52,748 bases of DNA from Escherichia phage LF82-19: the sequence record PV660457. One strand, 5' to 3'. The translations under genes and the position numbers were made by a program. Positions 1 through 52,238 of this stretch are shown piece by piece (the first letter of the stretch is position 1; each line of letters begins with the position of its first letter). The notes under the pieces were generated by a model that had not been told where the DNA came from, searched no databases, and saw only the letters and a program-made list of their open reading frames with translations.

Positions 1-555
1 ATGTCACATGAAGAAGATAACGAATGGAAAAGCACGAGCGGCGCAGCCAATGAAGCGATCAAGAAAGGGAACTTTAAAGCACTGTATAACAAGAAGTATG
101 GCGACTTGTTTACGGTTTCAAAAAACCATGCTTTCACGCCTGAGCAGCTTTTTGATATGGCTGTTAAATACTTCACCTGGGCGGAAGAGAACGCGCTTAA
201 AGCAGCGGAAACGGCAAGCTTTCAGGGCATTGTGACTGAGAACCTCGTGCATAAGGTGCGCGTATTCACCCTTAACGGACTGTGCCTATTTTGCGGAATC
301 ACAGCCAACGCGATCCACAACTGGCGCAAGCAACCCGGATTTGGTGACGTGGTGGAGTTTATCGACAACGTGATCTATGAGCAGAAATTCCAGCTTGCGG
401 CTAACGGCATCATCAACGCCAGCTTTATTGGCAAGGAGATCGGCATTGATAAAGCGCCGGAAATTAACGTTGCAGCGACGGCGGCGGCTTCTGTTTCAGC
501 GCCAACCACTGAGGAAGTTAAAGACGCGGTGCGTGATATCCTGGGGGAATTATGA
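1..555 (+). CDS. terminase small subunit (putative)
   Basis: 184 aa ORF directly upstream of and overlapping (ATGA) the large terminase; size and position typical of TerS; no diagnostic motif. Confidence 0.5.
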   Translation: MSHEEDNEWKSTSGAANEAIKKGNFKALYNKKYGDLFTVSKNHAFTPEQLFDMAVKYFTWAEENALKAAETASFQGIVTENLVHKVRVFTLNGLCLFCGITANAIHNWRKQPGFGDVVEFIDNVIYEQKFQLAANGIINASFIGKEIGIDKAPEINVAATAAASVSAPTTEEVKDAVRDILGEL

Positions 556-2141
556 TCCAGTGGGAAGACTTGACGGCGGCGCATAAAGCCGCCATTAAAG
601 CGATGAGTGAAACATCGTTCGAGAAGATGCTGCGGATCTGGTTCCAGTTATGCCAGGCGCAGAAGTTCCAAAGCAACTGGCACTTTACCTATCTGTGCTG
701 GAAGGTTGAGCAGATCATCAAGGGTGAGGCTCAAAACGTGATATTCAACATCACGCCAGGATCGGGCAAAACTGAAATCTTCTCTATCCACATGCCTGTT
801 TACGGAATGCTGAAGAGTCCGAAGGTTAGAAACCTAAACCTTTCGTTTTCCGATAGCCTCGTGAAAGATAACGGCATTCGCACGCGTGAGATCATCGGCT
901 CTGACGAATTCCAGGAGCTATGGCCTTGCAAGATGGCGAAAGCCAGCGGTGGAGATATCACGGCGCTAAACGACAACCAGAAAGCGTGGCTTACGCTAAC
1001 CTCCCGCGCCATTGGTGGGCAGGTAACGGGTAAGCGTGGCGGTTACATGGATGATCCTAACAAGCCGTGGGAGTTTACCGGGATGTTGACGCTTGACGAC
1101 CCGGATAAGCCAAAGGATATGTTTTCCGCGATCAAGCGCAAGGCCGCGCACACCTTGCTGAAGAACACCGTGCGATCGCGGCGAATGACAGACCGCACGC
1201 CATGTGTTGTGGTTCAGCAGCGCCTACACGTCAACGATTCAACATGGTTCTTGATGAATGGCGGTATGGGCGGTATGAAGTTTGAGCAGGTTATTATTCC
1301 GGCTCTCGTAACTGAGGAATATAGAGACACGCTTCCTGACTGGTTGAAAGAAGAGTTTGACAATGACGTTTTATCGTCCGATCCGGTCTATATTGACGGC
1401 GTGGCGCATTACTCGTTTTGGCCTGCAAAGGAAAGCGCTGAAAGCCTGTTAGCTTTGCGCGAAGCTGATCTCTACACGTTTGAATCTCAGTACCAGCAGA
1501 AGCCGATCGCGCTTGGTGGTAACGCGTTTAAAGCGGAATGGTTCAAGTATTACGGAGAAAGCGAGAAAGCTGATTTTCCAGTGCCTGACCGCTTCGAATA
1601 CCTGTTTACAACGGCTGATACCGCTCAGAAGGCCGAAGAGATTCACGACTTTTCAGTTTTCGTGTTGTGGGGTAAATATCGCGATCGAATCTATTTCGTC
1701 GATGGGATTCGCGGGAAGTGGGAGGCACCTGATCTGGAAAAGGCCGCGCTGGGCTTCTACAACGAGTCATTCCTGAAGGCTAAGAAGATGAAGGTTGCGA
1801 TCAGAAAGGTTTACATCGAAGACAAGGCGAGCGGAACGGGATTGATTCAGTCGATTAACAAGAAATTGCCGATCGACATTACGCCAGTTCAGCGAAACAC
1901 GGATAAGGTAACGCGAGCTATGGATGCAGCGCCGATACTCAAGTCCGGGCGAGTTGTATTCCCTGATGATCACCCAATGCTTACAGAAATGGAGGCGGAG
2001 TTGGTGGGGTTCACCTTCGACGATAGTCACCCTCACGACGATATAGTTGATAACGTGGTTGACGCGGCAAACTTCGAAATGAACTTGCTTGATGATCCGG
2101 TAGAGCGCATGAAACGCTTAGCAGGAATGAAGAAACAGTGA
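552..2141 (+). CDS. terL: terminase large subunit
   Basis: 529 aa; ATPase N-terminal half and C-terminal RNaseH-like nuclease region with acidic residues; followed by portal. Confidence 0.85.
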   Translation: MIQWEDLTAAHKAAIKAMSETSFEKMLRIWFQLCQAQKFQSNWHFTYLCWKVEQIIKGEAQNVIFNITPGSGKTEIFSIHMPVYGMLKSPKVRNLNLSFSDSLVKDNGIRTREIIGSDEFQELWPCKMAKASGGDITALNDNQKAWLTLTSRAIGGQVTGKRGGYMDDPNKPWEFTGMLTLDDPDKPKDMFSAIKRKAAHTLLKNTVRSRRMTDRTPCVVVQQRLHVNDSTWFLMNGGMGGMKFEQVIIPALVTEEYRDTLPDWLKEEFDNDVLSSDPVYIDGVAHYSFWPAKESAESLLALREADLYTFESQYQQKPIALGGNAFKAEWFKYYGESEKADFPVPDRFEYLFTTADTAQKAEEIHDFSVFVLWGKYRDRIYFVDGIRGKWEAPDLEKAALGFYNESFLKAKKMKVAIRKVYIEDKASGTGLIQSINKKLPIDITPVQRNTDKVTRAMDAAPILKSGRVVFPDDHPMLTEMEAELVGFTFDDSHPHDDIVDNVVDAANFEMNLLDDPVERMKRLAGMKKQ

Positions 2142-2148
2142 TATAATC

Positions 2149-2177
2149 AGCCGGGCTAATAACCCGGCTTTTTTATT
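2149..2177 (+). terminator. hairpin plus T-run between terL and portal
   Basis: AGCCGGG-ctaataa-CCCGGCT followed by TTTTTTATT. Confidence 0.45.
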
Positions 2178-2189
2178 GAGGAAATCGCT

Positions 2190-3506
2190 ATGACTAAGCA
2201 GAAAAAGCCCGTCAAAATGGACTCGTACAACGAGACATTCAAGGGCGCAGGTACAGACCGCGCGCACAGCGGCCTAAACTATTATTACAACGTCACGCAG
2301 TTCTACATTGACAACCCGCTAGCCCGTAAGATTATCGACGTTATACCGGAGGAAATGGTTTTTCCTGGGTTCGGTATCGACGGCGAAACGGATGAGAAGG
2401 AATTTAAATCCCGATGGGATGCGCTGAAGATGAACGAGCAGATTGTTGAAGCGTTTGCGTGGGAACGCCTTTACGGTGGCTCAGCAATCGTGGCTGTGAT
2501 CAATGACCGCCGCGCGCTCACTTCGCCAGCCAAAGAGGGTGCCCCGCTTGAGTCTATCCGAGTGTACGAAAAGGAGCAGGTCAAGATCCAGACGCGAGAA
2601 ACCAACCCGCGTAATGTTCGCTACGGTATGCCGAAGACGTACACCATCAACCCTGGTGGCTCTATGCCTGAGTACGAGATCCACTATTCGCGAATCTACA
2701 TCAACGATGGTGATCGCGTGCCCGGTTCGGTTCGCCGTCAAAATGAGGGGTGGGGTGCTTCCGTTCTTTCTCGCGGAATGATTGATGCCATCACGGACTA
2801 TGACTACTGCGAAGAGCTTGCAACTCAGCTTTTACGCCGTAAGCAGCAAGCGGTGTGGAAGGCTCGCGGCCTGGCTGATTTATGCGATGATGATGAAGGG
2901 CGCTACGCGGCACGAATCAGGCTTGCTCAGGTTGACGATAACAGCGGCGTTGGGCGTGCGGTTGGTATTGATGCCACGGATGAAGAGTACGAAATCTTGA
3001 ACTCCGATATCAACGGCGTTGACGCTTTTCTTGATAAGAAAATGGATCGCATCGTGAACTATTCCGGCATCCATGAAATCATCCTGAAGAATAAGAACGT
3101 GGGCGGCGTTTCAGCGAGCCAAAACACGGCGCTTGAGACATTCTACAAGATGATTGACCGCCGCCGTAACGAGCGATACAGGCCGCTTCTGGAGTGGTTG
3201 TTGCCGTTCATGATTCAAGAGCAAGAATGGTCTATCCGGTTCGACCCTCTCTCTATGCCGTCAGAGAAAGAACAGGCTGAGACATTCGAGCGTTACACCA
3301 ATGCGGTTGACAAGCTGATCACGAATCAGGCTATTGACACCGAAGAGGCGCGCGATACACTTGAATCTGTTTCTGATGTGCTCAAGCTGAAATCCGGCTT
3401 GCCGAAGTTGCCGCCGCGCGATAAGACTGGCAAAGATCAGCAGGGTAAAGAGAAAGTAACCACACTGCCAAAAGGGGCTACAGATGAAGGTTCAGGGGAT
3501 AGCTAA
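2190..3506 (+). CDS. portal protein
   Basis: 438 aa immediately after terL, RBS GAGGAA; size and position. Confidence 0.8.
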   Translation: MTKQKKPVKMDSYNETFKGAGTDRAHSGLNYYYNVTQFYIDNPLARKIIDVIPEEMVFPGFGIDGETDEKEFKSRWDALKMNEQIVEAFAWERLYGGSAIVAVINDRRALTSPAKEGAPLESIRVYEKEQVKIQTRETNPRNVRYGMPKTYTINPGGSMPEYEIHYSRIYINDGDRVPGSVRRQNEGWGASVLSRGMIDAITDYDYCEELATQLLRRKQQAVWKARGLADLCDDDEGRYAARIRLAQVDDNSGVGRAVGIDATDEEYEILNSDINGVDAFLDKKMDRIVNYSGIHEIILKNKNVGGVSASQNTALETFYKMIDRRRNERYRPLLEWLLPFMIQEQEWSIRFDPLSMPSEKEQAETFERYTNAVDKLITNQAIDTEEARDTLESVSDVLKLKSGLPKLPPRDKTGKDQQGKEKVTTLPKGATDEGSGDS

Positions 3507-9798: not shown

Positions 9799-9840
9799 GT
9801 GATTTAATACGCGAAACACAACCAATCAGAGGATTTAATT

Positions 9841-20677: not shown

Positions 20678-20712
20678 AATGCCACCTCGTGAGTTTGTTT
20701 GATTGAGTGCAA

Positions 20713-20741
20713 ATAATACACCAGCGAGCAGACAAAATCAA
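20713..20741 (-). promoter_or_regulatory. sigma70-like promoter for the minus-strand MPG operon
   Basis: on minus: TTGATT - 17 nt - TATTAT. Confidence 0.35.
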
Positions 20742-21115
20742 AGTCAACATGTCGTTCCTGTAGTTAGCTGTTAAGAAAATCACTTTCCGGCGATTTCGAT
20801 ACACGCAACTACAGAAAACTACAGCGTTATACATTGCGTAAGTATATATATAATAAGGGTTTATCTAATATTATTATTATTACTATATTCATGTTGTAGT
20901 TAGTGTAACGGTATCGTTTGGTGATTCCCGGATATCTTTTCGAATAGTTGAGTTAATTGTGTGGTTATTAGGATGCCGATACCTGGCTACCCCTCCGCAA
21001 TCCGCGTTAAAATCGATACACGCAACTACAGTCAGCATTCATGCGGGTTTGAAGGGTGTTTTTTGTAACGAATGCCATTATCGACAAAAAATAACACTAA
21101 CGACACGTTATATAT

Positions 21116-21143
21116 TTGACAAAGCGAATGAACCGCGTATACT
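21116..21143 (+). promoter_or_regulatory. strong sigma70-like early promoter
   Basis: TTGACA - 16 nt - TATACT, about 35 nt upstream of the exonuclease gene. Confidence 0.55.
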
Positions 21144-21176
21144 CAGCCACATCAACCACAACTGAGGAATAAAGTG

Positions 21177-23509: not shown

Positions 23510-23535
23510 AAAGGAGCCTTTCGGCTCCTTTTTTA
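23510..23535. terminator. bidirectional terminator between ssb and tail fiber
   Basis: AGGAGCC-tttc-GGCTCCT then TTTTTTATTT. Confidence 0.55.
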
Positions 23536-25752
23536 TTTCAGCAATAACGACTCAAGTTTAGCAAGGCGCTCTTCCATTTCCTCCATTCTGTTACCCATGT
23601 AAACCATAGCACAGGCCATATCAGTAAGCATGACGTTTGAATCAAGAGCTAGCGTATCGTCCTTAAATCCAGTCTCGATCTGCCTGGCAACGTACTCCTC
23701 ACCATTCTCGTTGACTCCGATAACATCTTCAAAGATCGGAGCGCCAGGGACTACTTTCACATACTGACTATCAACTTTATTCAAGTCCTGAGCAATCAGA
23801 CCGAATCTCTGTGTGTCAGATCCCTTATACTTGAACATGGTTGGGAGCCACTGCATTACGCGATCATAGCTCTCCTTTCCTTCGGTGTATTTGATATCCC
23901 ACTTAAGATCCCGGTCAGACGTTGGCGCTTTCTGGAATGTATACCCCCCATCCCATCCTCCACCCTGACCCCATGAGATAATATCTGATGATGGTGCATG
24001 GAATTCAAATCCGCGATGGTACGCACCATCACCAAGCATCTTAATTACTGCGCGAGGCCATCCGTTGTTCCCGCTAGAAATCATACCAAGAGAGGTATTC
24101 ATTCGATACCCGCCAGTTGATGTGGTTGCCCCTGAGATCAATGAAGCATATCCGGCATCATTACCCGTTACATCACCAGCAAAGAACGTACTCCCCATGT
24201 AATCATTTGGCTGCGCCCAACCTCCTTGAGTTAACTTACCAAGAAACCCCCTTGGAGAAGATATGTGACCGCCGTATGAGTTTATGAATTTAAACTCCTT
24301 CCAGTCACTTCCTTGGTTGTTCACTCCGATCTTGAAGTGATCAATATCAGTGCCACTACCGCGAACCCCCCCAATCTGCCAGTAACCAGAGTACCAGTTA
24401 CCTTGAACCAGGTTAACCCAACTATTAACAGAGCCATCACCAGCAGCGTTTTGAATCAGGATGTTTTTGTTTCCGCCACTCTGAGTTGAAACAACGATCG
24501 ATTTACCCTGCTTTGCCTCTACGTTTCCGTTTGTTGCAACCAGAGCGCCGCCGCTAATCGTTCCGACGGCTGTCAGCGATGCAACTCCGGTAATGTTCCC
24601 CGCCTCATCAAACTGATAGTAGTTCCCCTTTCCTCCAGCCGTGTTTGCCGTGTGAATCGTTGTCTTTACAACGCCGCCTTGTAGTTCATTGTAAAATCTT
24701 GAGTTTGATTGCAGCGTTGCGCCGTCAGCAGAAAGCCTTTTACTCTCAATCAGCCCCCCACTAGTTGCTGAGCCAAGTGTTGTAGCCTCCACGCCTCCAA
24801 ATCTCACCGCTTGACCCGAGCCGATACCAAGATTGTTTCTTGCTCCGTCAGCAGTTGTTGATCCAGTGCCACCAGATCCGATAGGGATCGGGATTACATT
24901 TCCGTTACTATCCTGCCACTGGAAAATCCCATCATCGCCAATCGTCAGCCTTTTTGTTCTATCTGGCGTGCTAATGTAGTTACGCGTTCCAATGTGGCGC
25001 AGCCAGTCAAGATCAAGGTTCGTCCTCGCGGCTTGTACGTCAGTAAGATCAGATAGGTTATTTGCCTTCTTTAGCTGTTCGTCAGGGTTAGCCGTTGCTG
25101 CGCGGTCTGCTTCAGCCTTGGCTCGTGCTGCATCGTCACGAGCGGCGGCGGCAGATTGCCCGGCGCTGGTTTCGCTGTTTGCTGCATTCGTCTCGCTTAC
25201 CCTGGCGGCATCCTTGCTGGCTCCGGCTTGGGTTGCGGCAACTTCGGCGGCAACGCGTTGCTGATAAGCTTGCTGGTTCTGGCTTCCGGCCTCGCTTGCA
25301 CTTTGTGCGGCGGCGTTCTTGCTTGCCTCAGCTTCGTTTGCGTTAACTTCAGTACGATCAGCATCAACGCGAACGGCAGACTGAAGATCTTTCAGCTCTT
25401 GCAGGTTAAAGTTCTTGAAGAAATCCATAGCCTCCTCGATCACAGTTTCCTTGCTTTGGTAGTAGCGCAGAGTTTCAGCCACATCTTGAGCAAGGCCATC
25501 AACAGTGATTGAGTCATGCAGCAGGATTACATAGTTCGTACCATCCGGCACAACTGCATCATCCGTTTGGATCGCTCGCATTTCCGTGTCACTCACGATC
25601 GCGGAAATAGTAACCAGCGTTAGTGGTTGAGTTAAAAACACCATCGTTGCCCCAACGCGAATCAGAGACAGCTTGTCTTGCCATTTCGTATCAACGCCAG
25701 TTACAACGCCGTTAGCGGCCAATCCCGCCGTTCCTCTACGATAAATCGCCAT
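23533..25752 (-). CDS. tail fiber with C-terminal peptidase S74 intramolecular chaperone domain
   Basis: C-terminus DRDLKWDIKY ... GLIAQDL ... LAKLESLL typical of the autocleaving chaperone domain of fibers/endosialidases; Gly/Ser/Thr-rich beta-like middle; start at ATG 25752. Confidence 0.75.
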   Translation of the reverse strand: MAIYRRGTAGLAANGVVTGVDTKWQDKLSLIRVGATMVFLTQPLTLVTISAIVSDTEMRAIQTDDAVVPDGTNYVILLHDSITVDGLAQDVAETLRYYQSKETVIEEAMDFFKNFNLQELKDLQSAVRVDADRTEVNANEAEASKNAAAQSASEAGSQNQQAYQQRVAAEVAATQAGASKDAARVSETNAANSETSAGQSAAAARDDAARAKAEADRAATANPDEQLKKANNLSDLTDVQAARTNLDLDWLRHIGTRNYISTPDRTKRLTIGDDGIFQWQDSNGNVIPIPIGSGGTGSTTADGARNNLGIGSGQAVRFGGVEATTLGSATSGGLIESKRLSADGATLQSNSRFYNELQGGVVKTTIHTANTAGGKGNYYQFDEAGNITGVASLTAVGTISGGALVATNGNVEAKQGKSIVVSTQSGGNKNILIQNAAGDGSVNSWVNLVQGNWYSGYWQIGGVRGSGTDIDHFKIGVNNQGSDWKEFKFINSYGGHISSPRGFLGKLTQGGWAQPNDYMGSTFFAGDVTGNDAGYASLISGATTSTGGYRMNTSLGMISSGNNGWPRAVIKMLGDGAYHRGFEFHAPSSDIISWGQGGGWDGGYTFQKAPTSDRDLKWDIKYTEGKESYDRVMQWLPTMFKYKGSDTQRFGLIAQDLNKVDSQYVKVVPGAPIFEDVIGVNENGEEYVARQIETGFKDDTLALDSNVMLTDMACAMVYMGNRMEEMEERLAKLESLLLK

Positions 25753-25775
25753 TGTCAACACCTCTTGTTAGTAAA

Positions 25776-25790
25776 TAGCACGAATTGCTA
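25776..25790. promoter_or_regulatory. palindrome TAGCACGAATTGCTA downstream of tail-fiber -10
   Basis: lies between the extended -10 and the RBS of the tail fiber gene, opposite in orientation to early-promoter copies. Confidence 0.45.
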
Positions 25791-25796
25791 AAACGC

Positions 25797-25805
25797 ATTA
25801 TATCA
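25797..25805 (-). promoter_or_regulatory. extended -10 element (TGATATAAT) for tail fiber gene
   Basis: TGnTATAAT on minus strand about 45 nt upstream of ATG. Confidence 0.4.
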
Positions 25806-25817
25806 GGCATTCAGGCA

Positions 25818-25841
25818 ATAAAAAACCCTCCGAAGAGGGTT
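25818..25841 (-). terminator. rho-independent terminator after primase
   Basis: on minus: AACCCTC-ttcg-GAGGGTT then TTTTTTATT. Confidence 0.5.
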
Positions 25842-25851
25842 GTTGTTCGAT

Positions 25852-26787
25852 TTACTCCAGTCTGTCAATAAGAGATTGCGGATCGTATAGCCTACGCTGC
25901 ATCCCCTGGCGGAAATTGTCATTGTTCGGCAAGATTACCCTCAGATCCCGATCGTCAGCCATGCACAGGGTTTGGTAATCGGTAGACAGGCAAGCAACGC
26001 GAAGCTCACGATCTCCTTTGTATCGCCAAGCCACAATTTCAAGGTTCTCGGGCGTGAAAGTGACCCATACTTCCTGATTGGTTGCCGTCGCTACGCGATG
26101 CCCTTCGATTATGTCGCACACCAGATAAATAGAGCCAGTGCCAGCACCAAGCTTAACAACTGAACCGCGAGAATGATCGCGAGCCATAAAAGAATATTCC
26201 CCACTTTCATTAACAAACAGGATATTACACATTTCATCATCCAATCCTTCCGGTTGAGCGAGATAGCACGGATATGCATGAATAAGCGATTCTCCGCCAT
26301 TCTCGCGAGGTTTTACGCCTACAATGAATGATTCATCCAATAGGCACTCATAAACGCTTAGAGGCGTGCTGGCTCGCAATTCAGTGCGCTCCATAACAGC
26401 CATACAGGCATCGTGATCAACTTGCTTGCCAATATTGGCATCGGTTGTTCTCGCTATGCGCTTGTAAGCCTTCACGCGGTACTCTTGCGGAACCTTGCCC
26501 AAGAAGCGCCCCAGGATGTTAACCGCCTCGCTGTATGGCTCACCAGTCAGCTTCATGACCCAGCCAATGCCTTTATCGTTACCGCATGCGTTACAGATCG
26601 CCCCGCCGTCACCCTTCGACTCAAGGTTATCAGTCCAGCGGAAGCGGTCATTGCCGCCACAGTTTGGGCATGGCTGGTGTTTGCCATTGAATACGGTTGA
26701 GGGAAGAGCGCATATTGACTGCAACGCCTCGCGCCATAATCCTTTCATGTATGGCAAAACTTCCTCTTTCTGGTACATCATCGACAT
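25852..26787 (-). CDS. DNA primase (zinc ribbon + TOPRIM-like)
   Basis: N-terminal CPNCGG ... CNACG four-Cys zinc ribbon; followed by acidic-motif catalytic region. Confidence 0.6.
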   Translation of the reverse strand: MSMMYQKEEVLPYMKGLWREALQSICALPSTVFNGKHQPCPNCGGNDRFRWTDNLESKGDGGAICNACGNDKGIGWVMKLTGEPYSEAVNILGRFLGKVPQEYRVKAYKRIARTTDANIGKQVDHDACMAVMERTELRASTPLSVYECLLDESFIVGVKPRENGGESLIHAYPCYLAQPEGLDDEMCNILFVNESGEYSFMARDHSRGSVVKLGAGTGSIYLVCDIIEGHRVATATNQEVWVTFTPENLEIVAWRYKGDRELRVACLSTDYQTLCMADDRDLRVILPNNDNFRQGMQRRLYDPQSLIDRLE

Positions 26788-26842: not shown

Positions 26843-27301
26843 TCATTGATTAGCTTTTCGTGCTTTCAGTGTTTTCCAGGATGGTTGCTCCGGCTTGGTT
26901 TCTAACTCTTCCTTTCTCACCACGCGCAGCATGTGACGCTTTTTGCATCGGACTGTTAGCGGCTTGCCGTTGCCGTCGAATGACAGATCAGGGCGGCACC
27001 ACGACGCGCGGAAACCTCCGCCATTTCGTTTATATGCGTTGTGCGCCAGTTGCGCGCCTCGCGCTGAAATCATGCCGCGTTGCCGCCACTCATAAACAAC
27101 CTGAAGCGAAACGCGCAATTCTTTCGCCAGCTTTGCAGGTGAGCCGTAGAATTCAAGGATGGTATCTAATCTAGCCTTAAGCCCGGCCTTTACTTCGTCT
27201 CGTAAAACATAGTAACCTACTGGACGTTTTCGGCGCTTAGCGTCACTTCCGCGCTTCGTTCCATTGTTCCCATTAAGCGTGCGTTTATCTACGGTTTCCA
27301 T
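26843..27301 (-). CDS. HTH DNA-binding protein (Cro/YdaS-like, putative regulator)
   Basis: AKLAKELRVSLQVVYEWRQRG HTH-like segment; basic N- and C-termini; divergent from helicase promoter. Confidence 0.5.
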   Translation of the reverse strand: METVDKRTLNGNNGTKRGSDAKRRKRPVGYYVLRDEVKAGLKARLDTILEFYGSPAKLAKELRVSLQVVYEWRQRGMISARGAQLAHNAYKRNGGGFRASWCRPDLSFDGNGKPLTVRCKKRHMLRVVRKEELETKPEQPSWKTLKARKANQ

Positions 27302-35024: not shown

Positions 35025-36611
35025 TTACCCCAGCAAGCGTGGATTAACGTAAATCTTATCACCGATCAGGCAAGTGTAATTCTTCTCGTCAAGCATCGGC
35101 AGCAAGTGATCTTTGATTCGTGTCATTGTTCCGGCCTGGCCTTCGAATGGTCGAACCTTGCGCGCGGCCTCGTAAAGCGCCCGAAGACCAACAACGCCCT
35201 TCCCCTGCTTTCCGCTCTTGATCAGCAAGTCAATAAGCTTGTTCATTTCTGCTGAATCGCCAGCGTGCCCGGCAGACGACGCGGAAGAAAGATAGGTCTT
35301 GCTCAGCTCGTTAAACATGATCACGGCCTCCTGCATTGTGTCAAGCTCAATCTCTCGACTCTTCGGCGCATTGCTTCCGTTTGGTGAGAACCAGTTACGG
35401 ATCACATGCAGAACCGACGCGATACGAATCGCCTGTTTATCGAACTTGCCCAGCGCACCGCGTAACATGGTGTGCGAGTATTTCCCGCCGTCTGCCAAGT
35501 GTGGCTCCATCGCCTGGCGTGCGTTGTTAAGGTACTTCATCGCGCTCTTGCTCACCGTGAGCTTAACGTCAACCTCACTCATGATGGCGTGTATCAGCTT
35601 GAAGTAATCAGCTTTCAGGCCGCCGTCAATAGGCTCGTAAGTTGACTCGCCATTGTCATTCACGAAAACACGCTCACCAAGGAATGACTTCTCACGAACC
35701 AGCAAGAAACGCTCAGAAACACCGATACCGCGCGCACCTGCATTCATGATCGCGTTGATTGTCTCGTCCTGCGCGATAACCGAAATACAACCCATAGCCA
35801 CGAATGACATGTTGTTATCAGCGTTCGCACGAGCGATAGACACGTTCCCTGCATCCCATGCTTTCAGCACAAGCTCGCTGTTTGTCTTCTTCGAACCGTC
35901 ACCATACGTCATGCCCAACAGGCTGTTAACGGATGTCGCTTCGTCCGAGATCACAGCGAAGTTGCCTTGACGGTTGTTAATGCGTGCCAAGCCTTCAGGC
36001 GTGGTATCTGAAACAGGGAAAACGATATCGCAAAGGCGCTCAAGCTTCTCTTCAAGATCCTCTTTCTCCTCAAACAGCGAGGCCATTTCAGATGGCGCTT
36101 TCTCCTGTTTCATTTCCTTCGCCAGCGCAGACAGTTTGGCGAGAATCTTTTTACGCTCACGCTTACGAGCCTCGTTGAGTCGCTCAGTCTCCGCGATCAT
36201 TGGCGCGATGGATAGCGAGTTGATTGCGGATTTCCCCGTTGATGGTGGCTGACTGGTTACAACGTAGAGCGCAGTTGGTTGTTGCGTTCCGTGATAGTCA
36301 ACCGTGAACCTACCCAGCATGGCGGCAGACACGCAACCTACAAAGTGCATATAGGCTGAAGACTCAGGGAATTGAACCGATCTCGCGGCGTTGCGTGAGA
36401 GCTTGCCGACCACATCACTATCGTTGCCCAGGGAAATAACAGGATATTTATCATTACCTGAATCAATCTCTACCGGAGCCTTCCAGAAGGATTGGGATTG
36501 ACGATATCCATTCGCATTTATGGCAACGCGGAGCGGCGGCAACCCTTCGGCCTTTGCAACCTCGATCACTTGTTCCGGCGAAAGTTTATCATCATTGAAA
36601 ATATCGAACAT
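35025..36611 (-). CDS. P-loop NTPase, putative replication helicase/initiator
   Basis: Walker A-like PPSTGKS; 528 aa; in replication gene neighbourhood. Confidence 0.45.
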   Translation of the reverse strand: MFDIFNDDKLSPEQVIEVAKAEGLPPLRVAINANGYRQSQSFWKAPVEIDSGNDKYPVISLGNDSDVVGKLSRNAARSVQFPESSAYMHFVGCVSAAMLGRFTVDYHGTQQPTALYVVTSQPPSTGKSAINSLSIAPMIAETERLNEARKRERKKILAKLSALAKEMKQEKAPSEMASLFEEKEDLEEKLERLCDIVFPVSDTTPEGLARINNRQGNFAVISDEATSVNSLLGMTYGDGSKKTNSELVLKAWDAGNVSIARANADNNMSFVAMGCISVIAQDETINAIMNAGARGIGVSERFLLVREKSFLGERVFVNDNGESTYEPIDGGLKADYFKLIHAIMSEVDVKLTVSKSAMKYLNNARQAMEPHLADGGKYSHTMLRGALGKFDKQAIRIASVLHVIRNWFSPNGSNAPKSREIELDTMQEAVIMFNELSKTYLSSASSAGHAGDSAEMNKLIDLLIKSGKQGKGVVGLRALYEAARKVRPFEGQAGTMTRIKDHLLPMLDEKNYTCLIGDKIYVNPRLLG

Positions 36612-36686: not shown

Positions 36687-37103
36687 TTATAAATATTTTG
36701 CTTCAAATGTTGTGCCGTCTGCGATCGAAAATCCAACCTCCTCGCGGTAAAGGTTCCACGGTGAGCCGTCCTCGTCAAAGATAAGCCCGGCAACCCCACC
36801 AAGCGCCCTGCCTGAATCCACCTGGTAGCGCTTGCCAACCTTAAAGGATTTCTTCATTGGGTTCTTGTGATCCAGCGTCATGCACTTCAGGGTTTTAGTT
36901 TTCATCTCAACGAATGTTGCAGCAACGACGCCATCCGATGAAACGAAAATATCACCGCTTACGCCAACCGAAAGCACGATCTTAGCCTTGCCCTTGCCGA
37001 TTGAAATGTTGCCTTCATCGTCAACTTTCGCCTTATACATGTGGTTAGCGTTGAAGGTTTTAGTTAATGACATGGTGCATTTGATCTTGATTGACTTTGA
37101 CAT
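36687..37103 (-). CDS. hypothetical protein (possible MKVKC-family relative)
   Basis: start MSKSIKIKCT with RBS GAGGAA; track ORF to 37166 runs through promoter. Confidence 0.4.
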   Translation of the reverse strand: MSKSIKIKCTMSLTKTFNANHMYKAKVDDEGNISIGKGKAKIVLSVGVSGDIFVSSDGVVAATFVEMKTKTLKCMTLDHKNPMKKSFKVGKRYQVDSGRALGGVAGLIFDEDGSPWNLYREEVGFSIADGTTFEAKYL

Positions 37104-37175: not shown

Positions 37176-37865
37176 TTTGTAACGGTTGTACTGGAAGACG
37201 GCGCGAGCGAATCCGCGCGGAGTTAGGGAGCGGAGTTGCTTAGTCTTCGCAGACTTTCCGCCGAGGAACTTCCAGCCCCAAAAGAAATGCAAGCCTTCCT
37301 CTTTTGGTAATGGTGCCTTCTCTGGCTCGCGGAAACCGTTGCCATGCCAGATGCAAGTTTTTTTCGTGTAGCCGTCTCGCAGTGGCATTTTGGGGTGCCA
37401 GGAGCCTTCACGCGCATCGACGTATTGCCCGAAGTCACGAGGATGGAAATAGAATTTAGGCTTGCCCAGGTTTTCCGGCTTTGACATTGCCCCTACCGGG
37501 TTTTCAATCATCCACGGGATCTGGTAGCGTTCGCCAATCTCAATGACAACCTTTGCACACTCAAGCGCATATTTCATTTCGGCGTCGTCTCTCTCGTGCT
37601 GCGCGCCAGATTGGGCAAACAGAGTGCAATCCGGGAAGCCAAAAACGATATCAGGCTTGGGCAACCCCAGGATCTCAGCCTTTGTGATGAAATCCTTATC
37701 AATCCACGTATTCACATATCGGATATTTGGGTGATTCATCTTCACGGCGTACTCGCCATGATTGCCGGAGTCAGCGTTGAAGCATATCACCTGACAACCA
37801 ACCTCAGCCCAAGGCAATCCCATAATGCCGGAGCCGTCAAACAGCGACCATACAACACGCTTCAT
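37173..37865 (-). CDS. C5-cytosine methyltransferase-like protein (short)
   Basis: motif I LFDGSG, motif IV FPDCTLF (PC), motif VI ENP (ENV-like); only 230 aa, no obvious target-recognition domain. Confidence 0.55.
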   Translation of the reverse strand: MKRVVWSLFDGSGIMGLPWAEVGCQVICFNADSGNHGEYAVKMNHPNIRYVNTWIDKDFITKAEILGLPKPDIVFGFPDCTLFAQSGAQHERDDAEMKYALECAKVVIEIGERYQIPWMIENPVGAMSKPENLGKPKFYFHPRDFGQYVDAREGSWHPKMPLRDGYTKKTCIWHGNGFREPEKAPLPKEEGLHFFWGWKFLGGKSAKTKQLRSLTPRGFARAVFQYNRYK

Positions 37866-41127: not shown

Positions 41128-41367
41128 TTACCCCTTGATAGTCAGGCCGAAAGCCTCAACCAGAATGTCACTTGCAGCGTGCATTTCGCAACGAGCAACC
41201 TCACGGTCATCAAAATTCTCTACAGCGTACATCACAACACCACGAGCCTGATCAGCTTCTACAAACTGGTTGCAACGGTCATTCAGTTCTTTCGCTAACT
41301 CAGCGTCAAAATCAGCCGTTACGCCTTCGATAAACTCCGCCTCGGTGATGATGTTCATGTAGCGCAT
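41128..41367 (-). CDS. hypothetical protein (first gene of minus-strand early operon)
   Basis: 79 aa, RBS GAGGAA. Confidence 0.45.
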   Translation of the reverse strand: MRYMNIITEAEFIEGVTADFDAELAKELNDRCNQFVEADQARGVVMYAVENFDDREVARCEMHAASDILVEAFGLTIKG

Positions 41368-41398
41368 TGCTGTTTCCTCAGTTCGTTTCGTTGAGATA

Positions 41399-41441
41399 AC
41401 TATAGCCGAAACATCCTGAGTGGTTTTAGCAAAAAGTGCTA
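41399..41441 (-). promoter_or_regulatory. palindrome TAGCA-N5-TGCTA plus -10 TATAGT
   Basis: 22-nt gap; leftmost promoter of the minus-strand early operon. Confidence 0.5.
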
Positions 41442-41562
41442 TTGATTCGATTTATCCAATTATTCCATTATTCCAACTATTCTGGAATATTCCTGAATAA
41501 CCGAATATCTGGAATAGTCAAAATGACTATGGCTCTCCGTTCGTTTTAGCGAACAAACGTTC

Positions 41563-41582
41563 GATGTGATGTGATGTGATGT
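41563..41582. repeat. (GATGT)x4 tandem repeat
   Basis: GATGTGATGTGATGTGATGT in divergent control region. Confidence 0.6.
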
Positions 41583-42015
41583 GAATGAGGGTGAGGAGGC
41601 GATCAGATCTGATCCCGAAACTTTTTCCCTCACCGCACGATTTGCTAATGAATTGTCGTGCCTGTAGTTGTATGTTGTGTTTTACGTTTTCCGTGGAAAT
41701 CGGTACGCGCTACTACGCGGAATAACAATGTTATGCTTTATATATAGATATATAAGTATATATAAAATAAAGGTTTTTTATTATATATATTATCTAATTT
41801 CATAACACTTTATAACGTGTTGTGTTTGTTCCGCCGGACGCGGAGTGATTGATATGTTTCGCGGCCTATTTATGCCTATATTGTGAAATATGGGTAGGGG
41901 GATATATACCCCTCCGAAATCCGCAACAAACGCTTAATACGCACTACAACCCAGCAGGAATGCACCATGTAGAGGAGATTTTGTTGATAATGGCAATAAT
42001 CGACACAAATTAATC

Positions 42016-42044
42016 TTGACTACAATTAAGCTTTTCCGCATTAT
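42016..42044 (+). promoter_or_regulatory. strong sigma70-like early promoter
   Basis: TTGACT - 17 nt - CATTAT, about 30 nt upstream of first plus-strand early gene. Confidence 0.55.
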
Positions 42045-42076
42045 GGCGGCTCAACCAATCAGATGAGGTATCACCC

Positions 42077-42574
42077 ATGACACTTGCAGAAGTATTGCGC
42101 TATATGGCAACCGAAGCCATGAAATCCCCTGAGAAGGAGATCACCGTGCCAGTGTGGCAAATCCTGGTTCAGGCACACAATCTGGACGCTGACGAGCGCC
42201 GCGCATTACAGGCAGACTTTGACAAGCGCGTTGAGCTGGTAGCAAGTGAGAAGCGCCTGACCAACTCGTACATCACCAACACCTGCAACCGCATGAAGGA
42301 AATGATCGCGGCTGACCTATCCATCACCACAAAGCGTGGCGAGGACGACGGCGGGAATCGGACGCTCACCCTGGGCGTTAAGCCCGGCGCAATGAAGCTG
42401 GGCAGTCGGAGCAAGTCGGAGAACATCGCGGCGAAGAATGCAGTGCAGGATTTTGCCCGGCGCATCATGGAGATTGCCCCAGCACTAGATAGCCTGAGCG
42501 ATGATCGCGTTGCTGGTGCCGTCGATGGCGTGCGCATGATGAAAGAGCTGATTGCCAGGGAGGCCGGACTATGA
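42077..42574 (+). CDS. hypothetical protein (first plus-strand early gene)
   Basis: 165 aa. Confidence 0.5.
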   Translation: MTLAEVLRYMATEAMKSPEKEITVPVWQILVQAHNLDADERRALQADFDKRVELVASEKRLTNSYITNTCNRMKEMIAADLSITTKRGEDDGGNRTLTLGVKPGAMKLGSRSKSENIAAKNAVQDFARRIMEIAPALDSLSDDRVAGAVDGVRMMKELIAREAGL

Positions 42575-42783
42575 AGCTTCGAATAGCTATCGTTTCCGTT
42601 GTGCTGCCATTCAGCGGCGAGCGCAAAAACACATACGCCGTTCAAAAGCGGATCGGCTTCTTCTGGTGGCAGACGCTTACCCTGTGTGACAGCTTGCCCC
42701 AGGCGCGCCACTATGTACGCCACACCCTGGAAGATCGCAGTGGTGAAAAGCTGGTCAAGGTTCTGAATCGTTATTCCTCTTGA
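42571..42783 (+). CDS. hypothetical protein
   Basis: 70 aa, ATGA overlap. Confidence 0.35.
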   Translation: MKLRIAIVSVVLPFSGERKNTYAVQKRIGFFWWQTLTLCDSLPQARHYVRHTLEDRSGEKLVKVLNRYSS

Positions 42784-42798
42784 ATGGAATAATTGGAA

Positions 42799-42841
42799 TA
42801 GCACGAACTGCTAAAACACCAGATCGGGGCTATGCCATAAT
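42799..42841 (+). promoter_or_regulatory. palindrome TAGCA-N5-TGCTA plus hairpin with CATAAT
   Basis: 22-nt gap; hairpin GGGGCTA ... TAGCCCC. Confidence 0.5.
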
Positions 42842-45655: not shown

Positions 45656-45695
45656 GCCCTTATTGAAGCAGAGCAAACCAATCAGAGGATTCAAC

Positions 45696-48355: not shown

Positions 48356-48963
48356 TGGCAACTATCATCATTCTGAATGCGCCGCCGCGCGCCGGGAAAG
48401 ACACGATCGCGAAAATCATCGACGAGCAATACGGCTTGCCAGTTGTGAGCTTCAAAACTCCGATGTTCAACATTGCTCGCGGCATCTTGGGCGAAGCGGA
48501 TTTTAAAGAGTTCATGGCGGTTTACGAAACAGACCGCAAGGACACACAGCCGTTAAGTATTCTGCATGGCAGCACTTGCCGCGAGTTTATGATCTGGATT
48601 AGCGAATCCGTGATTAAGCCTCATTTCGGCAAGAAGCATTTCGGCTGGCTTATGGCTGATTTGCTCAGCGAAATGGAGGATGATGTTGATCTCACAATTT
48701 GCAGCGATGGCGGGTTCCCGGATGAGGTAGAGGCGTTGATTGACTTCGGGCACCGTGTCAAGCTGGTTCGTATGCACCGTGAAGGCTTCGACTTCTCGAA
48801 AGATAGCCGTGACTACATCTACCTTTCCGAAGAGTACAAGAGCAAGCCTGGTGTTGTTGAGTTCGATCTGACATTGCAGGACGGTTGCCCTAATCTGGCT
48901 GCTGAGACTATCGCGTCATTGTTCATTGCCCATCATAAACCAGATAACGAGATCCCTTGGTAA
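48355..48963 (+). CDS. P-loop kinase (polynucleotide or nucleotide kinase-like)
   Basis: Walker A-like NAPPRAGKDT; ATGA-coupled to the phosphatase. Confidence 0.55.
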   Translation: MATIIILNAPPRAGKDTIAKIIDEQYGLPVVSFKTPMFNIARGILGEADFKEFMAVYETDRKDTQPLSILHGSTCREFMIWISESVIKPHFGKKHFGWLMADLLSEMEDDVDLTICSDGGFPDEVEALIDFGHRVKLVRMHREGFDFSKDSRDYIYLSEEYKSKPGVVEFDLTLQDGCPNLAAETIASLFIAHHKPDNEIPW

Positions 48964-52150: not shown

Positions 52151-52238
52151 GGAAGGTTGGCAGAGTGGACGATCGCGCACGGTTGCTAACCGTCAAGCCG
52201 GAAACGGCTCAAGGGTTCGAATCCCTTACCTTCCACCA
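52151..52238 (+). tRNA. tRNA-Ser (anticodon GCU), class II with long variable arm
   Basis: acceptor GGAAGGT/ACCTTCC, anticodon loop TTGCTAA, variable stem GCCG-gaaa-CGGC, T-arm AAGGG-TTCGAAT-CCCTT, encoded ACCA end; D-stem and anticodon stem slightly imperfect. Confidence 0.6.

Follow-up and report, generated by a model that had tools for sequence, protein, structure and literature searches.

T1-like phages often contaminate laboratories, are frequently considered for therapy and carry out generalised transduction. The record of phage TLS was opened at a restriction-mapped packaging (pac) site, PhageTerm gave a forward packaging start at 36,862 in MSK (P=1.6e-9), and the SU57 paper reports a PhageTerm end in the homologous untranslated region and places a T1-type pac in the corresponding region. 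The pac signals proposed in print, ATATA repeats in T1 and AGATTT in TLS, differ from the GATG-repeat zone to which the present analysis points. Recent papers, including the TLS paper (PMC11447400), list the origin of T1-like phages, their exact pac signal and the role of a 21-nt direct repeat (DR) as unknown. Here we analyse a window of 52,748 bp, the complete genome of the T1-like Escherichia phage LF82-19 (PV660457, Drexlerviridae), and within it the 709-bp gap at 41368-42076, called hub B, from which two series of small genes diverge.

We consider it moderately probable that hub B is the T1-family left-end control region, a compound cis-acting locus made of a leftward promoter-like element (P_L), a GGAATA array, a candidate pac core, an AT-tract module and a rightward promoter-like element (P_R). 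The functions best documented by homology would be packaging initiation and divergent early transcription. A T1 left end or pac region with its DR is a known kind of element; what is new is the anatomy at the level of motifs, a triple-GATC palindrome that occurs once in the genome, the two-copy AT module with its extreme conservation and the k-mers specific to the hubs. The features of the sequence, with their statistics and conservation, and their positional homology to the mapped ends of relatives were observed directly; from these we infer each function in LF82-19.

Packaging ends of relatives and the candidate pac core

The T1 record (NC_005833) starts inside the gap homologous to hub B, its last leftward gene ending at 48674 and its first rightward gene starting at 539, and position 1 opens an annotated terminal repeat_region (1..2800). 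The T1 junction (...GGAATATCTGGAATAATCACGATCATGATTGATCTCTAATGATGAGATGTGATT|GTTGCATGG...) lies just right of the GGAATA array and a GATC pair, within GATG repeats; this pair, 20-33 nt left of position 1, is the densest in the T1 genome. The TLS junction (...GATCCTGTTACGTGATCGTTATATGATCAGATGATGATTGATGTGTG|AGATTT...) likewise lies inside the gap, after a GATC cluster and GATG repeats. In MSK, the homologue of the Rtp gene rtp1 starts at 37364, about 500 bp downstream of the PhageTerm start, so the MSK terminus is placed directly after GTGAGTGAGTGAATGAAAGATGGATGG, a run of GTGA/GATG repeats. When the ends of relatives were moved to LF82-19 by their distance from the DR and by motif, they fell at about 41530-41620, where (GATGT)x4, the G-rich box and the GATCAGATCTGATC palindrome are found. 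Three features occupy this part of hub B:

41563-41599, plus strand: (GATGT)x4.4 followed by the G-rich box AATGAGGGTGAGGAGG, the candidate pac core (Tandem Repeats Finder; homologous motifs in relatives)
41601-41614, unstranded: perfect 14-bp palindrome GATCAGATCTGATC with three Dam sites at 5-bp spacing, invariant in relatives
41631-41638, unstranded: box CACCGCAC followed by TTTGC, common to Vilniusvirus hubs

Hub B has the setting of a T1-family left end, a large divergent gap between small-gene operons that is syntenic with T1 position 1, the TLS pac and the MSK terminus, and it contains the motifs of the mapped ends, namely (GATGT)x4.4, GAGGGTGAGGAGG and (GATCN)3. A preliminary description of this DNA had pointed out a (GATGT)x4 tandem, which Tandem Repeats Finder recovers as 4.4 perfect copies at 41563-41584. 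That description gave the region no packaging role and missed that the ends of T1, TLS, MSK and SU57 all map in the homologous gap. T1, TLS, Rtp, MSK, Vilniusvirus, YP10S2 and Phc all have homologous GATG or GTGA repeats together with a G-rich box. Because the ends of relatives map at the GATG-repeat zone, a packaging start is the best available explanation of (GATGT)x4 and its neighbours. Among LF82-19, T1 and Rtp the small terminase subunit TerS shows about 55% identity, whatever the type of array, and since this conserved TerS parallels the GATG zone we assign the pac core to the GATG/G-rich/GATC zone and not to the array. A link between repeat type (TTATTCC or ATTGCA) and TerS divergence was considered and dropped, TerS being equally similar to those of T1 and Rtp.

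The palindrome GATCAGATCTGATC is bracketed by a 7-bp inverted repeat, GGTGAGG (41590-41596) and CCTCACC (41628-41634). Its pattern, (GATCN)3, occurs once in the LF82-19 genome and at the equal position in HazelMika, KLB19 and YP10S2. LF82-19 and T1 both encode a Dam-type methylase, and the GATC cluster accompanies phages with many GATC sites; it is absent from the hubs of Rtp and MSK, a GATC-poor lineage with 1.5 GATC per kb in both phages, and no homologue of the LF82-19 methylase was found in Rtp. A cruciform or hairpin at the palindrome was rejected, as the DNA fold was non-significant (z=-1.7).

In the mechanism that we propose, the terminase would recognise concatemeric DNA at about 41530-41620 and make the first cut there, after which headful packaging would proceed rightwards, and the triple Dam site would probably couple cutting, or access to the site, to the methylation state.

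As a separate observation, three contigs of relatives from Logan stop within the hub, at 312 nt (L021), 622 nt (L024) and 196 nt (L027) before the DUF7174 gene; AT-rich low coverage, repeats or physical ends could each account for this.

Conservation and selection in the gap

The homologous gap was compared in 12 phages (LF82-19, HazelMika, KLB19, Phc, morffagbaw, damhaus, KLPPOU149, YP10S2, T1, TLS, Rtp and MSK). The 11 relatives, from at least seven genera, all have a gap of 600-1000 bp at the homologous divergent junction, and the order of elements is the same in all 12: a leftward DR, a lineage-specific array, a GATC cluster with GATG/GTGA repeats, a G-rich box, short boxes, an AT tract, further boxes and a rightward promoter-like site. 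The AT tract lies 350-450 bp from the left edge of the gap, and further in the longer gaps of Phc and Rtp.

Selection was examined with four full-length hub B sequences of relatives, representing three lineages, taken from public assemblies; the DUF7174 proteins of these relatives are 88-95% identical. Hub B aligns with them end to end at a mean identity of 94%, whereas identity at the third codon positions of the adjacent gene is 69-76% in the three lineages. The AT tract is 100% identical in all three and the AT-tract module (41654-41951) is 96-99% conserved, with 93-97% for 41801-41895 and 96-100% for the CCCCTCCG block (41896-41951). The GATGT/G-rich/GATC zone is 98% identical in two of the three lineages and the GGAATA array 93-96% identical in close relatives, while 41523-41562 and 41616-41653 drift (70-89%). 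Across the 213 nt of 41739-41951 the three lineages show 3, 6 and 9 mismatches, against a third-position divergence of 24-31% (P <1e-17). Constrained and drifting segments alternate at a scale below 100 bp and at the same places in the three lineages, and this interleaving argues for selection rather than recent transfer.

A BLAST search of the right half of hub B against phages, plasmids and E. coli genomes returned LF82 phages only, which speaks against a satellite or plasmid carrying this pac or origin; scans of IMG/VR by protein and by DNA pattern found no useful relatives.

The AT-tract module and its second copy in hub A

The right half of hub B has a diverged second copy in hub A (20678-21176), the second largest gap of the genome. 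The features of the module and its right border are as follows:

41654-41669, plus strand: TGTCGTGCCTGTAGTT, which contains the 8-mer CTGTAGTT and is collinear with hub A 20750-20765
41687-41727, unstranded: near-palindrome TTCCGTGGAA, then GGTACGCGCTACTACGCGGAATAAC (TACGCG twice), iteron-like boxes that border the AT tract on its left
41739-41800, unstranded: AT tract, about 92% A+T at its peak, the least stable duplex of the genome
41801-41895, unstranded: right flank of the AT tract, with two short inverted repeats capable of forming hairpins (41801-41824 and 41839-41863)
41896-41951, plus strand: palindrome AGGGGGATATATACCCCT, then TACCCCTCCGAAATCCGC, then AATACGCACTACAAC, which the preliminary description called a shared block
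41979-41995, unstranded: 17-mer TTTTGTTGATAATGGCA, present inverted and with one mismatch in hub A (21073-21089)

An almost pure AT tract had been singled out as extreme, and nearest-neighbour duplex stability agrees: 41739-41798 is the least stable 60-mer genome-wide (dG, z=6.5), with hub A the runner-up (z=5.5). Within the tract, 22 of 24 positions match hub A 20839-20862. The 43-bp block said to be shared with hub A has no second copy in the genome at three or fewer mismatches, so it is no exact repeat; its homology to hub A does hold for the 18-mer TACCCCTCCGnAATCCGC (41907-41924 and 20988-21005, one mismatch), which is followed by the gapped sequence ATAC(AC)GCA(A)CTACA. At the same time the sharing had been understated, since three or more other collinear blocks and an inverted one had gone unmentioned. 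The hubs have at least five blocks in common, four of them collinear (TGTCGTnCCTGTAGTT; TTTCCG..TCGnTAC(A)CGC..ACTAC; TAAGTATATATAnAATAAnGGTTT; and TACCCCTCCGnAATCCGC with ATAC(AC)GCA(A)CTACA), and the fifth is the inverted 17-mer TTTTGTTGATAATGGCA, which in both hubs stands just upstream of the rightward promoter, 20-27 bp from the -35. The inverted core CTGTAGTT is present as described (41662-41669) and is mostly a motif of hub A, which holds four of its six genome copies, with one in hub B and one elsewhere.

T1, Rtp and HazelMika also have a two-copy AT-tract module. The Rtp hubs have 78 bp in common at 90% identity, across the AT tract, and the HazelMika hubs share ATACCCCTCCGCA, also found in hub B of LF82-19, and CACTTTTTGCGC. 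In three genomes, hub-enriched k-mers lie nearly always within hubs A and B: ACTACAG in LF82-19 (5 of 6 copies, four in hub A and one in hub B), TGTAACA in T1 (5 of 6, split four and one) and CCGCGGA in Rtp (6 of 6, split two and four). The palindrome TTCCG(C/T)GGAA occurs once in LF82-19 (41689) and three times in Rtp, as TTCCGCGGAA, always in hubs and in hub B on both sides of the AT tract; T1 is without this box. The DUF3987 helicase of LF82-19 is 88% identical to that of Rtp and 57% to that of T1, and the helix-turn-helix (HTH) protein 70% and 55%, respectively. A search of solved structures for the DUF3987 helicase gave no match.

Two relatives of this arrangement deserve mention. Phc (Eclunavirus, gap at 2489-3379) surrounds its AT tract with about ten CGGAGGATT/AATCCTCCG repeats of either orientation, which resemble an amplified form of the single CCCCTCCG box of LF82-19, and its rightward unit has a DR-class element in place of a sigma-70-type site. 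Hub A of LF82-19 carries CTGTAGTT/AACTACAG four times, with one more degenerate copy, on both sides of its AT tract (20839-20898), repeats the 18-mer TCGATACACGCAACTACAG 216 bp apart, and has a near-consensus promoter-like TTGACA-16-TATACT (21116-21143) ahead of the exoVIII-Erf-SSB operon. From its sequence hub A looks more iteron-like than hub B, where one to three copies of each box flank the AT-tract minimum and the multi-copy GGAATA array lies 220 bp away.

The gap had been called the most likely primary origin or early switch region. Its character as a constrained cis-acting hub with divergent promoter-like elements stands; a primary origin is not demonstrated by skew, by DnaA or IHF sites, or by CTGTAGTT, which belongs mainly to hub A, and sequence motifs are the sole support for the switch. 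GC skew was rejected as an indicator of the origin because it follows gene orientation and transcription, and the skew-based origin of the Sfin-1 paper has the same weakness. DnaA boxes appear as isolated matches with one mismatch, unconserved in 12 hub B and 4 hub A sequences, and matches to the IHF consensus are likewise unconserved; one such DnaA-box-like 9-mer within TTTTGTTGATAATGGCA is not conserved in other genera. Hub B accordingly lacks the cluster of DnaA boxes with IHF or Fis sites beside an unwinding element that marks an oriC-like, DnaA-dependent origin, and it does not lie within or beside an initiator gene. The helicase is encoded at 35025-36611 and the primase at 25852-26787, while the neighbours of hub B are small genes without an annotated function. 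Recent papers, among them those on TLS (PMC11447400) and SU57, report that an origin of T1-like phages was not found.

We treat the origin assignment as a hypothesis. Boxes flanking the genome's least stable DNA, the presence of two copies and the extreme conservation speak for it; the unconserved host-factor sites, the uninformative skew and the absence of an adjacent replication gene speak against it. The AT-tract module (41654-41951) would be the best candidate for an origin or unwinding element that depends on a phage protein, with the DUF3987 helicase or a gp23-like HTH protein as its likely binder; that the AT-tract half of hub B is the replication origin appears possible, if doubtful. 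A more specific model, in which the modules of hubs A and B form a paired two-copy origin read by one of these two proteins, beside a pac whose GATC palindrome acts as a Dam switch, we hold to be unlikely. If it were true, the triple-GATC palindrome would keep the terminase off new hemimethylated DNA and so couple the change from replication to packaging.

Promoter-like elements and the GGAATA array

The left third of hub B and its right end contain the remaining features:

41368-41398, minus strand: short leader with Shine-Dalgarno sequence (GAGGAAACAGCAATG) ahead of the first leftward gene, including the leader motif AACGAAACGA common in DR-class units
41399-41404, minus strand: -10-like hexamer TATAGT of P_L, 18 nt downstream of the DR
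41423-41442, minus strand: copy of the 21-nt direct repeat of Drexlerviridae, ATAGCACTTTTTGCTAAAAC, in the direction of leftward transcription and with its 5' end at a distance of 76 nt from the ATG (41367)
41455-41519, unstranded: GGAATA/TATTCC half-site array, with two direct TTATTCC at 8-9 bp spacing, the palindrome GGAATATTCC, then TGAATAA, CGAATAT and GGAATAG inverted
41535-41553, minus strand: degenerate leader and DR-like remnant (CTCCGTTCGTTTTAGCGAA), recognised from the repeat families, in a segment 70-87% conserved in relatives
42016-42044, plus strand: P_R, sigma-70-type promoter-like TTGACT-17-CATTAT, matching 9 of 12 consensus positions
42045-42076, plus strand: leader with the AACCAATCAGA motif, which recurs at 9820 and at 45676, and with the Shine-Dalgarno sequence that precedes the first rightward gene

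The TLS paper (PMC11447400) describes a 21-base intergenic repeat in TLS, T1 and Rtp, with the consensus aaATAGCACnnnTTGnTAAAA and a position about 76 nt upstream of start codons, and lists its function as an open question. The copy in hub B agrees with this definition, as it matches aaATAGCACnnnTTGnTAAAA, is oriented with transcription and stands 76 nt before the ATG, and it is the sole part of hub B that BLAST recovers in other genera. A genome-wide repeat search found 24 such elements in LF82-19 (including 45612+, 44265+, 40022-, 37176- and 48964+), all with one rigid layout: the 20-nt ATAGCACnnnTTGnTAAAAC, an 18-nt spacer, in many cases a GC hairpin, then a -10-like hexamer, about 25 nt of leader, a Shine-Dalgarno sequence and the ATG, the distance from DR to ATG being about 76 nt. 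The distance from the TTG of the DR to the -10-like hexamer is 22 nt instead of 17 nt, and a canonical -35 is therefore absent. At the -10 position of P_L a relative has TATCAT, so TAnnnT is retained. T1 and Rtp hubs have a complete second DR. As a separate matter, the spacers of 37176(-) and 48964(+) read CCCGCTTCGGCGGG then TTTTGTTATT, a terminator-like structure within a promoter-like element.

With a member of the DR family at 41423-41442(-), the leftward unit opens with a DR-class element; the rightward unit opens with a host-type -35/-10 site. The earlier suggestion of a divergent early junction is consistent with a promoter-like element in each direction, although the DR had been overlooked. 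P_L, composed of the DR and the -10 hexamer, would start the leftward early operon, and P_R would serve as a host sigma-70-type promoter for the first rightward operon. The hexamers of P_R, its spacing within 16-18 bp, the gene downstream and its conservation fit a sigma-70 promoter as judged from the sequence. In one relative (L026) the P_R spacer has diverged while both hexamers and the 17-bp spacing are kept, and sites of the form TTGACx-17-xAxxAT, read by eye, stand at a like position in KLB19, morffagbaw, damhaus, KLPPOU149, Rtp and MSK. The site is present where a strong promoter had been proposed; its strength is not justified by the sequence, because one 9/12 match in the region is no more than shuffled sequence yields and better matches to the promoter consensus exist elsewhere in the genome.

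Clustered TTCCA/TGGAATA repeats had also been noted, and the statistics bear this out. Five exact GGAATA/TATTCC hexamers fall in 57 bp, compared with 0.04 expected from the genome density (P ~8e-10; ~8e-7 after correction for the number of windows), and 41460-41517 contains six copies of TTATTCC with at most one mismatch. The array follows the DR at the equal position in T1, HazelMika, KLB19, Phc, damhaus, morffagbaw, KLPPOU149 and YP10S2, so that the form with direct TTATTCC and then inverted GGAATAA at an 8-9 bp period is found in 9 of the 12 phages; ATTGCA-type repeats replace it in Rtp and MSK and the palindrome GACCGATTGGTC in TLS. In relatives it occurs once per genome, unlinked to other DR units. 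Standing between P_L and the pac core, the array would be a unique multi-copy protein-binding site, either an accessory of pac or an operator of P_L.

Two further observations concern the surroundings of the array. A second, small GGAATA cluster (42771-42818, with TTATTCC, GGAATAA and GGAATAG) abuts the first rightward DR at 42798 and was not seen at the equivalent place in relatives; in it the 15-mer TCCAATTATTCCATT of hub B (41455-41469) is repeated inverted at 42783-42797, directly upstream of that DR. At 41449-41456, GATTTATC agrees with the core of AAGATTTATCTG, the pac sequence of P22 as quoted in the TLS paper (PMC11447400). At the position after the DR, Rtp and MSK have GGATTTATGG and AGATTTATG, and T1 and Vilniusvirus are without such a motif; the P22-pac-like match may be chance.

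Genome setting

LF82-19 is a virulent phage of a new genus cluster, near-identical to Escherichia phages LF82-10, -11, -12 and -40, and was published in a genome announcement alone, in which its ends and non-coding DNA were not analysed. As in T1, the terminase and structural genes come first, then a recombination module, the genes for primase, an HTH protein and an SF2 helicase, the lysis genes and the DUF3987 helicase gene, and last two long series of small genes that diverge from hub B. That hub B is the largest non-coding region was confirmed by ranking gaps in the annotation of LF82-10, in which hub A (499 bp) comes second to its 709 bp. The phage encodes a P4-alpha-like primase and a separate DUF3987 helicase, with no recognised initiator among its annotated proteins.

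Hub B is flanked by a gene at 41128-41367(-) and one at 42077-42574(+). The latter encodes DUF7174, is the homologue of rtp1 and forms the rightward operon with a gene for 70 aa, while the leftward operon heads towards the methylase and DUF3987 helicase genes. The 79-aa product of 41128-41367(-) is strongly acidic, has no match among Pfam and PHROG families and could be an early DNA-mimic or anti-defence protein. Two relatives (L023 and L025) hold a non-homologous gene in its place, which makes the left edge of hub B a mosaic junction. Small open reading frames within hub B (30-57 aa) were rejected as unsupported, since relatives annotate differing, non-homologous ones or none.

Elsewhere in the genome, LF82-19 coordinates equal those of LF82-10 at 20 kb and are 147 lower at 41 kb. 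Most of this offset apparently lies in the tail-fibre gene, which encodes 742 aa in LF82-19 (23533-25761) and 788 aa in LF82-10 (23533-25899) and suggests host-range variation among the LF82 isolates. One tRNA gene (52151-52235; Rfam 44.9 bits, tRNA-Ser in the LF82-10 annotation) is found close to where the series of rightward small genes ends on the right.

Weighing the explanations

Several points weigh against hub B as a T1-family left end. The putative pac of LF82-19 is placed by homology alone, hub sequences of different genera align in islands only, and the mapped ends scatter over about 60-90 bp once transferred to LF82-19. T1 position 1 and the value 2800 are depositor annotations whose precision is not stated, and the MSK coordinate was taken as belonging to record MW057918. 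In TLS, the final assignment of pac leaned partly on a weak resemblance of AGATTT to P22. The GGAATA array does not follow TerS similarity, as Rtp and TLS are without it though their TerS are equally similar; P_R fits 9 of 12 consensus positions only; and promoter activity of DR-class elements has never been demonstrated experimentally (TLS paper, PMC11447400). As to an origin function, the searches of plasmids and E. coli genomes gave no similar sequence, the DnaA and IHF sites are unconserved and the skew is confounded by transcription.

Hub B could instead be primarily a replication origin with no packaging role, its GGAATA repeats and boxes serving as iterons and its AT tract as an unwinding element aided by divergent transcription. 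GATC clusters occur in oriC and P1 oriR as well, multi-copy repeats here adjoin the least stable DNA of the genome, and boxes flank the AT tract on both sides as in SaPI, SPP1 and P4 origins; moreover the phage encodes a primase and the DUF3987 helicase, has no recognised initiator, and belongs to a group whose origin is reported as not found. We judge this reading rather improbable, because four lines of evidence from relatives place the packaging start in the left half of the hub and because the GGAATA array is swapped for unrelated repeats in Rtp/MSK and TLS despite conserved replication proteins (the helicase being 88% identical to that of Rtp). The concentration of the CTGTAGTT family in hub A, the distance of hub B from any replication gene and the unconserved host-factor boxes point the same way.

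A purely transcriptional switch would explain other parts of the hub. Here the array, palindromes and shared boxes would be operators or enhancers for the Cro-like HTH protein (26843-27301) or for nucleoid proteins, the sites would time P_L, P_R and the hub A promoters, and the AT tract would be curved upstream DNA. Both hubs are indeed divergent promoter regions, the HTH regulator is conserved in the family and palindromic boxes suit dimeric HTH proteins; the inverted 15-mer TCCAATTATTCCATT directly upstream of the DR at 42798 and the inverted 17-mer 20-27 bp upstream of the -35 in both hubs are also placed as such sites would be. For some boxes, such as these two, a purely transcriptional role is possible. 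As an account of the whole hub it seems unlikely, given that most shared boxes lie 80-350 bp from the promoters, clear of the -35/-10 hexamers, that the TTATTCC array is found once per genome in relatives and unlinked to other DR units, and that the base-by-base invariance of the 62-nt AT tract exceeds the needs of curvature or AT-richness; it also leaves unexplained the genome ends that map here in relatives. That 41654-41951 is a small non-coding RNA with a diverged second gene in hub A, as its two copies and its very high conservation relative to adjoining coding DNA might suggest, is very improbable. Rfam gave no match even at a permissive threshold (best GcvB, 15.5 bits against a gathering score of 42, E=0.76), folding z-scores for the two strands range from -1.4 to -1.7, the segment lacks a framing promoter or terminator, its centre is the 62-nt AT tract, and its variation is too small for a covariation test.

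Comparison with known systems

The analysis would narrow the packaging signal to a zone of about 90 bp with defined motifs, and it offers the almost invariant two-copy AT-tract module of about 300 bp as a concrete candidate for the origin. Both predictions are testable on public reads (BioProject PRJNA1263023) and with simple plasmid assays, and hub B would be a region to leave undisturbed when such phages are engineered or rebooted.

In phage P1, pac consists of clustered TGATCA/G hexamers, and its cleavage depends on Dam methylation. Hub B resembles it in having clustered GATC at the region where packaging would start, in a phage with its own Dam-type methylase. It differs in that three GATC lie in one 14-bp palindrome, a single cluster with no second set, as opposed to the 4+3 hexamers on either side of the cut in P1, and in that the terminases are unrelated, the T1 annotation giving a P22 gp3-like TerS.

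For the AT-tract module, the nearest parallels are origins with repeated boxes. P4 has a two-copy origin (ori and crr), and SaPI origins have iterons on both sides of an AT-rich region. As in these and in SPP1, boxes flank an easily melted AT tract in LF82-19, a related second copy lies about 21 kb away, and a P4-alpha-like primase is encoded with a separate helicase. The hub B boxes, in contrast, are few and degenerate, the module lies away from any replication gene and no initiator is recognised. SPP1 likewise has two copies, oriL and oriR, which are bound by G38P (PMC3485210).

The closest likeness is to the T1-family left ends themselves. Sequences align in motif islands only, the ends are mapped in the relatives and placed by homology in LF82-19, and the perfect (GATCN)3 palindrome and (GATGT)x4 are limited to a few genera besides the LF82-19 lineage. 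At 41423-41442 the 21-nt repeat of Drexlerviridae fits the family consensus without difference. As in T1, TLS, MSK and SU57, the region occupies the syntenic gap between leftward and rightward small-gene operons, its elements follow the order DR, array, GATC cluster with GATG repeats, G-rich box, AT tract and rightward promoter, and the TerS and TerL that would act on it are homologous.

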